From Escherichia coli (lineage in GTDB: Bacteria > Pseudomonadota > Gammaproteobacteria > Enterobacterales > Enterobacteriaceae): a DNA stretch of 64,000 bases. Each line of letters begins with the position of its first letter. Position 1 is the stretch's first letter. The stretch lies in assembly GCF_051903065.1 (NCBI RefSeq), contig NZ_CP178438.1. One strand, given 5' to 3'. Under the pieces are notes generated by a model. It was not told the DNA's origin and did no database searches. It worked only from the letters and a program-made list of their open reading frames with translations. The position numbers were made by a program, and so were the translations under genes. Positions 7,472 to 12,205 of this stretch are shown here, one piece after another.

Positions 7472-8512
7472 ATGCATCGTATAGACACGAAAACCGCGCA
7501 GAAGGATAAGTTCGGCGCGGGTAAGAACGGTTTTACCCGTGGTAACCCCCAGACCGGCACACCTGCCACCGATCTGGATGATGACTACTTTGACATGTTG
7601 CAGGAGGAGCTTTGCAGCGTTGTGGAGGCATCAGGTGCCAGCCTGGAGAAGGGGCGGCATGACCAGTTACTTACCGCACTTCGCGCGCTGCTGTTAAGCC
7701 GCAAGAATCCGTTTGGCGATATCAAATCGGATGGCACGGTGAAAACAGCTCTCGAAAACCTTGGTTTGGCTAATTACGCAGACAAAGCAAGTCTGGCGAA
7801 TCAGGAGTTTTCTGGTCCCGTATCATCTAAAGACTGCGTTACCGCAACATCGGCAGATGGGGTAACCCGCAAAGTATCGCTTAATGCCAGTACGGGTTTG
7901 AAGATAGTTATTTATGATGGCGGAACTTACAAGGGGGCAATAAACATCCCGGCAAAAGACGGGACAATGGCACTTGTATCTGATTTGGCTAATTTTGCTG
8001 ATAAATTGAGTGCTTCTGAGCAATATTTTAAAGGACCTGTTTCATCCGGGGATGGGCTCATAGCAAAATATGGCACCGCAAAAATAATTCTGTCAGCCCA
8101 AAACGGTCAGAGAATTGTTGTTTATACAAACGACACTTACCGTGGAGCTATTAATATTCCACTTCGTGACGGAACTATGGCGCTCCTGGATGATGTTACT
8201 AATGTTAGCGCAACGCTGCTGGGTATATCTCAGTCATGGCAGAACGTGAAAGCCAGCCGTAGTGCCGGGGTTACGTATACCAACTCAACAGGCAGGCCCA
8301 TTGCAGTTTCAATCGCCGGAATAATGGCAACACGTCAGAATGGAGTTCAGTTGTCACTTGCCGTTAATGGCACAGAGGCTTCAAGTTTTGCCGTGACTGA
8401 CAGCTCGTTTGACATCAGGGGTAACGTATTTGCGATTGTGCCACCAGGAGCAACTTACAAACTTACAGCAAATAACATTAATTCTATTTTGACCTGGTCG
8501 GAGCTTCGCTAA
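7472..8512 (+). CDS. Phage tail fibre protein
   Basis: 346 aa; N-terminus [10 protein letters not shown]...[23 protein letters not shown] resembles the conserved tail-fibre N-terminal domain; internal ~60-aa duplication; followed by an assembly chaperone gene. Confidence 0.75.
7749..7774. other. hix/gix-like imperfect palindrome inside the tail fibre gene (candidate invertase crossover site)
   Basis: ctctcGAAAACC-TT-GGTTTggctaat; compare the hix half-site TTCTTGAAAACC; lies at the junction of the conserved N-terminal and variable C-terminal fibre regions (codons ~93-101). Confidence 0.45.
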
Positions 8513-8889
8513 TGAATACGGTAATCAAAGAGCAAAAATTCTTTAAGGACTCGGCCGGTGTGATTTTTTGCATCGACATCATGGAAATGAATGCTGAGTC
8601 ATGGGGTGAAGAAGTACAGGCCGGATGGCAGGAAATTAGTGCCGATGAAGCGCTATTAATTGCTAATCCACCGCCTACAGAGGAACAGCTATTTGAACAG
8701 GTTAGGGCGCAGAAACAGGCCCTGATTTCCGAGGCGACTGCAATTATAGATCCACTTAAGGATGCACTGGATGGTGGCTATATCGACGATGCAGACAAAC
8801 CAAGACTGACTGAATGGCAAAAGTACCGCTATGAGGTGACGAAAGTTGATCCGGGAAAACCTGTGTGGCCACCGAAGCCTACAGAATAG
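8512..8889 (+). CDS. Tail fibre assembly protein (Tfa/U-like chaperone)
   Basis: 125 aa; start overlaps the fibre stop; C-terminus ...KYRYEVTKVDPGKPVWPPKPTE typical of Tfa proteins. Confidence 0.75.
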   Translation: MNTVIKEQKFFKDSAGVIFCIDIMEMNAESWGEEVQAGWQEISADEALLIANPPPTEEQLFEQVRAQKQALISEATAIIDPLKDALDGGYIDDADKPRLTEWQKYRYEVTKVDPGKPVWPPKPTE

Positions 8890-8964: not shown

Positions 8965-9528
8965 ATGATTTACGGGTATGTTCGTGTATCAACAAATCAT
9001 CAGGATACAGAGTTGCAACGTCTTGCACTTGAGTCAGCTGGCTGTGAGCGAATTTATGAAGAATATGCCAGTGGCAGAACAGCTAATCGCCCTGTGTTAA
9101 AGGAATTAATTACGGTGATGAAAAGTGGAGATGAGTTGATTGTCTGGAAGTTAGATCGGATAGGGAGAAATGTGCTGCATGCGCTATTTATGTTTCAAAA
9201 TCTGCACGAAAAAGGTGTTAATTTTCGGAGTATTACAGATGGCGTAGACCTGAAAACAGCAAGTGGTCGCTATAATTTCCGTAATATTCTTTCTGCTGCG
9301 CAGTATGAATCTGATTTGAATAGCGAGCGAACTTTAGCTGGTTTGGCTATTGCCAGATCCAAAGGCCGGATTGGTGGGCGTAGACCGAAGTTTAGCGACG
9401 AGCAGTGGCAACAGATGGGAGCGCTCATAGCGGCAGGGAAATCACGGCGTTATGTTGCACGTATCTATAACGTTGGGCTATCAACCCTATATAAACGATT
9501 TCCTGTTACTGGCATTCAAACGAAATAA
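8965..9528 (+). CDS. Serine recombinase, DNA invertase (Gin/Pin/Hin family)
   Basis: 187 aa; MIYGYVRVSTNHQ...LDRIGRN motifs characteristic of resolvase/invertase family; adjacent to tail fibre genes as in the Mu G-segment/gin arrangement. Confidence 0.85.
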   Translation: MIYGYVRVSTNHQDTELQRLALESAGCERIYEEYASGRTANRPVLKELITVMKSGDELIVWKLDRIGRNVLHALFMFQNLHEKGVNFRSITDGVDLKTASGRYNFRNILSAAQYESDLNSERTLAGLAIARSKGRIGGRRPKFSDEQWQQMGALIAAGKSRRYVARIYNVGLSTLYKRFPVTGIQTK

Positions 9529-9671: not shown

Positions 9672-9920
9672 TTAGTGAACAAACCACTCGTCAGCAGATT
9701 CCCAGGTATCTTTCAGAGTCTCCTGAACAAAAGTTTTTGCAGAATCCTTATCTGCGGTGCGTGTAACAGAAAGGCCATCGTTGCTGGTGGCTTTTACGAT
9801 CACCTCTACATCGTCATAACGTTTACTGATGCGTCGGGTTAATTCTTCCTTTAACGCATCCACAGCACCGGTTGGCATTTTAGTCATTTTTTCTTTGGCT
9901 ATGCAGATTTCAATACGCAT
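9672..9920 (-). CDS. DinI-family DNA damage-inducible protein
   Basis: 82 aa; MRIEI...[24 protein letters not shown]...DEWFV pattern typical of DinI/MsgA; LexA boxes immediately upstream. Confidence 0.8.
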
Positions 9921-9981: not shown

Positions 9982-11079
9982 TCAAGAGGCCTTATTTCTG
10001 CTCCTTTGGAGCTCTTCAAAACGATTATGTAAAGATTTCGGATACAGTTCGGTATATACCTGCCATAGCACGTTTAATGAACGATGCCCTGTAACCTGGG
10101 CGACTTCCTCAATACTAAAACCAGCCTCAAATAAGCGACTTGCCCCTTCTCTACGCAAATCATGGTATCGCAGATCTTTAATACCTAATTTGCTTCTTAC
10201 CCTCTGGAATCCCGCAGTAACAGAAGTGCTGTTATATGGAAAAATGAATTCTGATTTTTTGGGTTGTCGTTGGACGATATCCCAGGCTTCCCCAAGCAAG
10301 GCTACTTTCATATGGTTGCCTTCCTTTTTACGTGGATCTTTCCTGTCTCTTACGAGTATGGATTTTTGTTCCTGATCGAGATCCTCCCATCGTAATCGGC
10401 ATACTTCACCGATTCGCATACATGACCACACAGAAAATTTGAGGATATCAACGAACGGAATTTTTGAGCATTTATGTGTAGATCGTTGTTGAAGACCTTC
10501 AATGAGCATGTCCAGTTCATCAGATGCCGGTCTACGATTACGACGATTTGATTTACCAATTAAACCAAGTTTAAGTAGATATGGACGAGCGGCTTTTGCT
10601 GGGTTTGATGTGTAATTAATTCCATATACAGGTTTGGCAGCATCCAGAACACTGCCAAGATAACTAACATCGTGGCTAACTGTAGCTGGACCTGCACCAG
10701 CGTTGTTTCTTAGCCTGCAATGTTCAATTACGTCATTTTCTGTCAGTTCAGATAGTTTGAGCGCGGAGACGTCACTATCCATAAGCAGTTCCAGCACATA
10801 TCTTTTAGTACGGCCTGCTTTACCTCCGGCATTTGGGTCATTTAAATATTTGTGTAGTAAGTCACGGACTGTAAGTCCGTCAACTGCATTTGATGATGGA
10901 ATGCCATATAGATCTAATTCCATCACTTTCTGTGTGCCCCATGTTTTGGCATGAGCATGTTTAGGGAATGTTTTACTTTCCCTGTAAGTGATAACACCTT
11001 TTTCTTTGATAATCACATTACAGCGATAGCGTGGTGTGCCATCGGATTTTAGTCGTTTCTCTATGTTATAGTATGCCAT
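9982..11079 (-). CDS. Tyrosine-type phage integrase
   Basis: 365 aa; C-terminal region with R...HDLRR...Y spacing typical of tyrosine recombinases; GAGG RBS 8 nt upstream; terminal position of the prophage next to dusA. Confidence 0.8.
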   Translation of the reverse strand: MAYYNIEKRLKSDGTPRYRCNVIIKEKGVITYRESKTFPKHAHAKTWGTQKVMELDLYGIPSSNAVDGLTVRDLLHKYLNDPNAGGKAGRTKRYVLELLMDSDVSALKLSELTENDVIEHCRLRNNAGAGPATVSHDVSYLGSVLDAAKPVYGINYTSNPAKAARPYLLKLGLIGKSNRRNRRPASDELDMLIEGLQQRSTHKCSKIPFVDILKFSVWSCMRIGEVCRLRWEDLDQEQKSILVRDRKDPRKKEGNHMKVALLGEAWDIVQRQPKKSEFIFPYNSTSVTAGFQRVRSKLGIKDLRYHDLRREGASRLFEAGFSIEEVAQVTGHRSLNVLWQVYTELYPKSLHNRFEELQRSRNKAS

Positions 11080-11095
11080 TACACGACCTCGTTAT

Positions 11096-11145
11096 TTCGG
11101 GTTCCCATAAAACGTGGGAACCTGTGCGGGAACCTAACGCGAGAA
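11096..11145. repeat. Cluster of three GGGAACC(C) repeats between the integrase start and dusA (candidate integrase-binding or att-associated repeats)
   Basis: cGGGTTCCCataaaacgtGGGAACCtgtgcGGGAACCtaa. Confidence 0.4.
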
Positions 11146-11167
11146 AAATAGCCTGAAATGTTCAAAA

Positions 11168-12205
11168 ATGCACGATAATCATGAAACACAAAAAATTAAT
11201 CAAACCAGCGTGATGCCTGAAAAAACTGGTGTTTACTGGAATTCTCGGTTTAGCATTGCTCCTATGCTCGACTGGACGGACAGACATTGCCGCTATTTCT
11301 TGCGTCTGCTTTCCCGCAATACGTTGCTGTATACCGAAATGGTGACTACAGGGGCGATTATTCACGGTAAAGGTGATTATCTGGCGTACAGTGAAGAAGA
11401 ACATCCGGTAGCGTTGCAACTGGGCGGTAGCGATCCGGCGGCGCTGGCGCAGTGTGCGAAGCTGGCAGAAGCGCGCGGATATGATGAGATCAACCTGAAT
11501 GTCGGCTGCCCGTCTGACCGGGTGCAGAACGGCATGTTTGGTGCGTGTCTGATGGGTAATGCGCAGCTGGTTGCCGACTGCGTGAAAGCGATGCGCGATG
11601 TGGTGTCGATTCCGGTGACGGTGAAAACGCGTATTGGCATCGATGATCAGGACAGCTATGAATTTCTCTGCGATTTCATCAACACCGTTTCCGGCAAAGG
11701 CGAGTGTGAGATGTTCATCATCCATGCACGTAAAGCCTGGCTTTCGGGGTTAAGCCCGAAAGAAAACCGTGAAATCCCGCCGCTCGATTATCCGCGTGTG
11801 TATCAACTGAAGCGTGACTTTCCGCATCTGACAATGTCCATTAACGGTGGCATCAAGTCGCTGGAAGAAGCTAAAGCGCATTTGCAACATATGGATGGCG
11901 TGATGGTCGGGCGCGAGGCGTATCAGAATCCGGGTATTCTGGCGGCGGTAGACCGGGAGATCTTTGGTTCCTCGGATACCGATGCCGATCCGGTTGCGGT
12001 AGTGCGCGCCATGTATCCGTACATTGAGCGTGAACTCAGCCAGGGGACGTATCTCGGCCATATTACCCGGCATATGCTGGGCTTGTTCCAGGGTATTCCT
12101 GGCGCGCGGCAGTGGCGGCGTTATTTAAGTGAAAATGCCCATAAAGCGGGTGCAGACATTAATGTGCTGGAACACGCGCTCAAACTGGTGGCGGATAAGC
12201 GTTAA
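11168..12205 (+). CDS. dusA: tRNA-dihydrouridine synthase A
   Basis: 345 aa; recognised DusA sequence and K-12 synteny (dusA-pspG-qorA-dnaB); extreme N-terminus may be prophage-supplied. Confidence 0.9.

Follow-up and report, generated by a model that had tools for sequence, protein, structure and literature searches.

Probable lambda-type arm sites at the int-dusA junction of a dusA-integrated Escherichia coli prophage

Positions 11080-11271 of the window (i.e. the whole stretch of Escherichia coli DNA analysed here, 64,000 nucleotides) constitute, as judged from sequence comparisons, the P arm and core of the attR site of a prophage with a dusA-specific tyrosine integrase. Three copies of the motif GGGAACC in this region are probably lambda-type arm sites, a reading derived from their fixed geometry, the presence of copies on both attP arms, the lineage-dependent motif and a predicted additional N-terminal domain of the integrase. 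The complete interpretation, in which an attR P arm and core adjoin a phage-restored dusA and the GGGAACC repeats act as integrase arm-type sites within a lambda-style intasome, is considered likely.

Organization of the int-dusA junction

The list of open reading frames placed int at 9982-11079 (minus strand, 365 aa) and dusA at 11168-12205 (plus strand, 345 aa, intact and in frame). The two genes are divergent and separated by an 88-bp intergenic gap (11080-11167), in agreement with an earlier, sequence-only reading, which gave the starts as 11079 and 11168. The features discussed below are the following.

9982-11079, minus strand: tyrosine integrase of the dusA-specific (DAI) family, 365 aa (from Pfam and relatives)
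11099-11107, minus strand: inverted putative arm-type site, GGGTTCCCA on the plus strand, 164 bp before the core
11116-11123, plus strand: putative arm-type site P1, GGGAACCT, 148 bp before the core
11128-11135, plus strand: putative arm-type site P2, GGGAACCT, 136 bp before the core and 12 bp after P1
11143-11180, no strand: four phased A-tracts (AAAAAT, GAAAT, CAAAAAT, GATAAT), from the sequence itself
11168-11263, plus strand: phage-borne substitute dusA 5' end ('phi-dusA'), 32 codons, from divergence from the native gene and copies in free phages
11264-11271, no strand: recombination core ATGCTCGA, identical in attR, attL, attB and attP in a four-way alignment
11272-12205, plus strand: body of dusA, host-derived and in frame with the phage-borne 5' end, from its low mismatch count (15/942 nt)

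The same reading had described three GGGAACC repeats of alternating orientation between 11096 and 11145. Three exact copies do occur in the gap, at 11100-11106 (minus), 11116-11122 (plus) and 11128-11134 (plus); the span originally given was slightly too wide, and the order is not alternating, since a single inverted copy is followed by two direct copies 12 bp apart. The boxes begin 20 bp from the int start codon and end 33 bp from that of dusA. Enterobacterial relatives keep the position and orientation of the inverted site (11099-11107), its sequence being lineage-specific.

At the level of the whole window GGGAACC was not over-represented (7 copies against 6.0 expected), and the cluster was the sole spot where any 7-mer occurred three times within 40 bp. 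Such a cluster is by itself weak evidence, as about 30% of simulated 64-kb sequences held one. Its non-random nature is indicated by its position and its conservation in relatives, namely a constant spacing to the core across 19 diverged lineages. The same int-dusA junction was recorded in 739 of 5426 complete E. coli genomes (about 14%), and most of the remaining ones match the window only from about 11165 onward.

Crossover point and substitute 5' end of dusA

The window was aligned with L001, a prophage-free strain, and with the two ends of a related prophage of 39 kb in strain PK8241 (L003). Upstream of 11165, no homology was observed between the window and prophage-free E. coli. From 11168 to 11263, 18 of 96 nucleotides and 9 of 32 amino acids differ from native K-12-type dusA, versus 15 mismatches in 942 nucleotides (98.4% identity to the prophage-free strain) downstream of these first 96 bases. 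Beyond dusA come pspG, qorA and dnaB, an order also seen in prophage-free genomes. The substitution of the native 5' end by phage DNA, suspected in the sequence-only reading, is thus borne out by the unequal mismatch counts before and after the core, by the presence of the segment in free phages and by the native fragment found at the far prophage end in related lysogens. The alignment with prophage-free dusA that had been suggested located the switch at ATGCTCGA (11264-11271). An upstream region and first codons identical to those of prophage-free strains, which that reading had taken to place the att site elsewhere, were not observed.

The block ATGCTCGA is the only one common to attR (window), attL (L003 and L094; outside the window) and attB (L001), with sequence of phage type on its left and of host type on its right; the attP sequence was taken from mEp460. 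In attP, TGCTCGA is flanked by the inverted pair CTCCTA / TAGGAT, which is the pattern expected of a tyrosine-recombinase overlap region, and the 7-bp overlap is likely TGCTCGA (11265-11271). As is typical of dusA-specific integrase elements, imperfect direct repeats were found at attL and attR in the conserved dusA segment.

Free phages displayed the corresponding undivided site. In mEp460, SKA5, YeP1 and EKP1 the intact attP comprises int, the repeats, a dusA 5' copy, the core and two further repeats; in mEp460 and SKA5, whose integrases are 97.5-98.6% identical to that of the window, int, three repeats and the dusA 5' copy are continuous with ATGCTCGA and then TAGGATGTACCG. The substitute dusA segment was unchanged in SKA5 save for one base in the int-dusA gap, and mEp460 carried a variant of it. 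Among complete genomes, the closest to the window was 23CRST027 (99.2% identity over 6.3 kb). This genome and PK8241 display a 105-bp dusA 5' pseudogene at the far prophage end, directly followed by phage DNA. The displaced native fragment of related lysogens lies about 39 kb away.

These alignments show that the phage integrated by a crossover within TGCTCGA, 97-104 nt into dusA. Integration moved the native promoter and first 32 codons of dusA to the far prophage end and fused the phage copy of these codons in frame to the remainder of the gene.

One record deserves separate mention. In phage Lys8385Vzw (L007, reverse complement of 1300-1320) the core occurs twice in tandem (ATGCTCGAATGCTCGA) in a 'circular' record, probably an artefact created when prophage ends, each containing the 8-bp identity block, were joined.

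Geometry of the repeats across the family

Diverged relatives were gathered from phage records and IMG/VR, yielding 19 dusA-targeting lineages with integrase identities of 35-99%. Seventeen of the 19, the mEp460-type module of the window among them, possess a tandem pair of 7-9-bp repeats whose members start at -148 and -136 relative to the core, give or take 1 bp. When all offsets were scanned, the tandem-repeat signal peaked at -148 (mean of 6.7/8 matches, background 3.2, z = 4.2), where 13 of the 19 lineages matched in at least 7 of 8 positions. The distance from the tandem pair to the int start codon ranged from 15 to 60 bp across lineages, and that to the dusA start codon varied as well. 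Since the distance is constant to the crossover and not to either start codon, recombination geometry appears to be the primary constraint, any regulatory effect of the repeats then being secondary. Enterobacterial lineages possess an extra inverted copy at -164, and many lineages devoid of it keep the tandem pair.

The sequence of the motif changed from one lineage to another, as listed here.

Window and mEp460-type phages: GGGAACC
Yersinia phage YeP1 and relatives: GGGGTGCT
EKP1: GGTGTAC
Morganella-like element: GGTGTCCT
Pseudoalteromonas phages: GGGTGACT
L059: GGATACCT
L062: GGGGTAC
L077: GTGTATCCC
Marinobacter phage AS1: GGAGCAC

Repeats were also encountered beyond the core. Two further copies lie at about +50/+61 in six of the seven intact attP sites (mEp460, SKA5, YeP1, EKP1, C5a and L090) and at +71/+82 in the seventh, AS1. 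The other arm of mEp460 attP displays GTGGGAGCCTATTGGGAACC at +51/+62, likewise found at attL of PK8241 and 23CRST027. In mEp460 and SKA5 the P arm has three copies and the other arm two; YeP1 and EKP1 share this five-copy layout with their own motifs, and C5a, L090 and AS1 have repeats on both attP arms in other copy numbers. Hence, as in lambda-type systems, a motif distinct from the core occurs on both attP arms at a fixed geometry relative to the crossover.

A constant geometry combined with a changing motif sequence is the signature of sites read by an element-encoded protein. The GGGAACC repeats were identical on lambdoid, Stx and myovirus-tailed phage backbones, which indicates that their binder belongs to the int-att module.

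A Klebsiella-type branch (L075, L079, L085, L087, L089 and L011/L012), whose integrases are about 51% identical to that of the window, displayed a tandem GGGGTGCTG pair adjoining int together with the same A-tract spacer. Its flanking DNA is not dusA, and the branch therefore appears to have switched target while keeping its arm architecture. The record OM284015 ('Elizabethkingia phage EKP1', L006) combines a DinI gene with a dusA 5' copy of enterobacterial type, and its integrase shares 67% identity with that of E. coli; the Flavobacteriia host stated for it appears doubtful.

Integrase and excision factor

The integrase of the window matched Pfam Phage_integrase (PF00589) over residues 189-346 (1.5e-20), and R222, K247/K252, H306, R309, H332 and Y342, the catalytic residues, were invariant in a six-member integrase alignment. 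It shares 99.2% identity with the phage 1720a-02 integrase and 97.5% with that of mEp460. As in dusA-specific elements generally, the gene encoding it adjoins the dusA 5' end in divergent orientation.

About 60 residues (an extra N-terminal domain, 1-58) precede the core-binding and catalytic domains. No Pfam or NCBIfam model covers residues 1-60. AlphaFold2, run with a 21-sequence alignment, predicted three antiparallel strands and a helix at the N-terminus (pLDDT >92). AP2 domains and the arm-binding domains of lambda and Tn916 share this three-strand sheet plus helix topology. Integrase residues 29-35, which lie in the third strand of the predicted domain, followed the motif class:

GGGGTGC (all nine lineages): xY..RE[NR]
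GGTGTAC: KH.HRET
GGGAACC: VIT[YF]RES

A PrtN-like excision-factor gene lies near attL in the closest genomes (L003 10249-10530; L094 10274-10546), and such a factor is also encoded in mEp460, YeP1, EKP1 and Kp4886. The window ends short of the attL end of its prophage, and this gene, like the other arm, was read from relatives. The excision factors of mEp460 and of the PK8241 prophage are 99% identical and travel with the integrase, so that module mosaicism cannot separate the two proteins as binder of the repeats. Whole-domain identities were likewise uninformative on this point, specific residues alone tracking the motif. Excision-factor similarity did not follow the motif: those of YeP1 and EKP1 are 71% identical with different motifs, those of YeP1 and Kp4886 51% identical with the same motif. 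Because residues 29-35 do follow it, the repeats were assigned to the N-terminal domain of the integrase, which we infer to be their candidate binder.

In L088 (IMG/VR 2895349264_000011) the integrase reading frame is broken after about 10 codons (a frameshift or deletion in the N-terminal domain) and the arm repeats are intact; this is possibly a decaying element.

The phased spacer

The last T of each A-tract falls at 11149, 11159, 11169 and 11179, i.e. at an exact 10-bp period right after P2, and the third tract includes the dusA start codon. A repeat of 10-11-bp period was found next to P2 in nearly all lineages, that of the Pseudoalteromonas group being three copies of GGCAATTCAA. A search with the IHF consensus returned no site in the E. 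coli-type attP and one at +28 in both YeP1 and EKP1. In lambda attP, Xis sites occupy the position matching the spacer next to P2. The A-tract spacer would most plausibly provide an intrinsic bend, excision-factor sites or both.

Phage-borne dusA copies (L004-L010 and L032-L090 compared) share a 'ATGCACGAAAAT' start (MH-x-N at the protein level) that overlaps the spacer repeats, and this conserved start may reflect a DNA-level pattern instead of protein function. By extension, the P arm could be of dual use, the bend or excision-factor array also containing the beginning of the substitute dusA (start codon and first codons) and presumably its promoter, a proposal that we consider unlikely. Were it true, DNA architecture and not enzyme function would dictate the MH-x-N start of phage-borne DusA N-termini, and occupancy by integrase or RdfN, the PrtN-like excision factor, would couple expression of int and of dusA, a host tRNA-modification enzyme, to the recombination state of the prophage.

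The arm-site model and its relation to lambda

The option of arm-type integrase sites, raised in the sequence-only reading, gained from the occurrence of the repeats on both attP arms, their fixed spacing to the core and the co-variation of the motif with the integrase lineage. In the proposed mechanism, the GGGAACC copies at -164, -148 and -136, with two more at about +50/+61 on the attL arm, would serve as arm-type sites. The N-terminal domain of the integrase would bind them while its C-terminal domains bind the core, and the intervening DNA would be bent by the four phased A-tracts, by RdfN or by both. The resulting lambda-style intasome would set the efficiency and direction of recombination. 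As the sites occupy the int-dusA gap at 20-55 bp from the int start codon, bound integrase may also dampen transcription of either gene, as a secondary effect.

The dusA attP (about 235-240 bp) resembles lambda attP in several respects: a motif distinct from the core on both arms, tandem copies about one helical turn apart, a separate excision factor, a predicted extra N-terminal domain of beta-sheet plus helix, and a candidate bend or excision-factor region by the P2-equivalent site. It differs from lambda by the lack of detectable N-terminal sequence similarity to lambda Int and by a 3+2 distribution of sites instead of 2+3. Moreover, phased A-tracts take the place of an IHF consensus site in the E. 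coli-type attP, and integration is aimed at the 5' end of a protein-coding gene, the start codon of which is contained in the P arm. The arrangement is an ordinary mechanism and does not change the understanding of site-specific recombination.

Alternative explanations

The repeats might mainly be operators of the divergent int and dusA promoters, with the integrase possibly acting as regulator and the recombination geometry being incidental. Autoregulation of this kind exists in phage P4, whose integrase represses its own promoter via sites in the att region. In the dusA elements the boxes fill most of the sole intergenic space, the first repeat is just 15 bp from the int start in some lineages, and the promoter of dusA has to come from the element, as was demonstrated in IMEVchUSA3 (PMC8409611). 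Yet, the repeats keep an invariant distance to the core (-148/-136) but not to the start codon of int (15-60 bp) or of dusA, and the two additional copies 50-61 bp past the core, on the other arm, have no shared promoter. No promoter-like hexamers were detected either: a consensus scan of 10900-11400 on both strands returned no promoter, including no sigma-70 consensus promoter, and no terminator. A phage immunity repressor is unlikely as binder given that the repeat sequences do not differ between lambdoid, Stx and myovirus-tailed backbones. Overall, operators as the main function are improbable, and secondary autoregulation via the repeats is possible. Binding by RdfN in place of the integrase would fit its location in the same module, where it is 99% conserved alongside the repeats, and the fact that tandem direct repeats are often bound by excision factors. 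It was nevertheless judged quite improbable: well-studied excision-factor sites are confined to one arm whereas these repeats occupy both, the motif class is followed by integrase residues 29-35 and not by excision-factor similarity, and the phased 10-11-bp repeat by P2 is a better candidate for excision-factor sites.

Two further possibilities received even less credit. An RNA hairpin formed by the inverted pair GGTTCCCA / TGGGAACC in the leader of int or dusA could serve as an attenuator or stability element, the apparent co-variation then being that of a stem; the stem predicted is 8-11 bp long and, in enterobacterial lineages, the inverted copy changes along with the direct ones. Folding, however, was no better than for shuffled sequences (z = -1.77 on the plus strand, +0.30 on the minus strand), and neither a T-run nor an Rfam match was found. 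In addition, many lineages lack the inverted copy, and a hairpin leaves the copies on the other arm unexplained. On the shuffle z-scores and the missing Rfam match it was rejected as the main explanation and is very improbable. As for a chance repeat devoid of function, the frequency of comparable clusters in random sequences of this length speaks in its favour, but nineteen independent lineages with different motifs at the same core-relative coordinates effectively refute it, and its probability is close to nil.

Relation to described dusA-specific elements

dusA-specific integrases were defined by Farrugia et al. (2015, PMC4482086), who described the element-derived 5' end of dusA, attL and attR with semi-conserved direct repeats, and a 21-bp attachment consensus. 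The elements of that study and the one in the window share a tyrosine integrase adjoining and divergent from dusA, an element-derived 5' end and a crossover in the conserved PMLDW-coding region. The repeats mapped here fall outside the 21-bp consensus.

Phage phi1720a-02 (phi-stx2dact) of Citrobacter rodentium integrates 100 bp into dusA, has a core of seven bases and restores the dusA reading frame by means of its 'phi-dusA' ORF (Balasubramanian et al. 2019, PMC6328086). With an integrase 99.2% identical to that of the window, it carries effectively the same int-attP module on a different backbone (lambdoid Stx, as opposed to the Mu-like baseplate and tail genes and DNA invertase of the window). 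Repeats beyond the core were not covered in that work. In IMEVchUSA3, the element was found to supply the dusA promoter, dusA expression was measured and the excision factor was identified as the PrtN-like RdfN (Durand, Deschenes and Burrus 2021, PMC8409611). Unlike the prophage of the window, IMEVchUSA3 is an SGI1-like mobilizable island controlled by AcaCD. SXT, which targets the 5' end of prfC, differs in both integrase family and target gene.

The reconstitution of dusA is thus correct but already known, since it was published for the integrase 99.2% identical to that of the window (PMC6328086) and for the family (PMC4482086, PMC8409611). Arm-type sites are mentioned neither in PMC4482086, where the term is absent, nor in PMC8409611, and a literature search on arm-type or arm-binding sites with dusA returned nothing relevant, subscription journals being mostly outside its coverage. 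Within the literature searchable, the repeats are most likely arm sites previously unmapped for the dusA-specific family.

Native dusA alleles and neighbouring genes

Two 'native' dusA 5' ends were encountered in E. coli (window 11168-11271 versus L001 3004-3107 and L002 2956-3017). The K-12-type gene encodes 345 aa with an MHGNSEMQ... start and is separated from zur by a DUF2713 gene, which we take to be K-12 yjbL/yjbM; the B2-type gene encodes 331 aa with an MPAESHTV... start and lacks the DUF2713 gene. Homology between both types breaks at the integrase core ATGCT[C/T]GA, and the K-12-type 5' end displays 84-87% identity to phage-borne copies from 3 nt before the start codon. One native allele may be the recombination scar of a dusA-integrating element. 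A search for a fossil of an older element at K-12-type dusA disclosed no integrase remnant and no P-arm homology upstream. Both native upstream regions share GTTATG[G/C]TATAGTA (L001 2905-2921, L002 2906-2920), which contains an extended -10-like sequence (TGnTATAGT) and is a candidate for the native dusA promoter carried to the far prophage end by integration.

Just inside attL (L003 9000-9988, L094 9192-10240), the cargo found between the excision-factor gene and the second attP arm differs among elements: it consists of a Panacea-domain protein with a small ORF (a toxin-antitoxin-like pair) in the prophages and of unrelated ORFs in mEp460. Similarity between phages stops right after the last arm repeat, and the other arm reads TTGTGGGAGCCTATTGGGAACC.

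On the int side of the window, a DinI-like gene (9672-9920, minus strand) lies just before int, and the segments 8965-9528 and 7472-8889 comprise a Hin/Gin-type DNA invertase adjoining tail-fibre and tail-fibre-assembly genes, probably a host-range switching cassette on a Mu-like tail module. The int-att module joined here to that tail module also occurs on lambdoid and Stx phages.

Significance

dusA is a common integration site, with Stx-converting phages among its users. This study adds a probable full attP map for the family, in which five arm sites accompany a phased bend region and a 7-bp overlap. With this map, dusA prophages and islands can be annotated to exact boundaries and compatible integrase/attP pairs can be predicted. 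The lineage-specific motifs would further constitute natural orthogonal pairs of arm site and N-terminal domain with which to probe how heterobivalent integrases read their arm sites.
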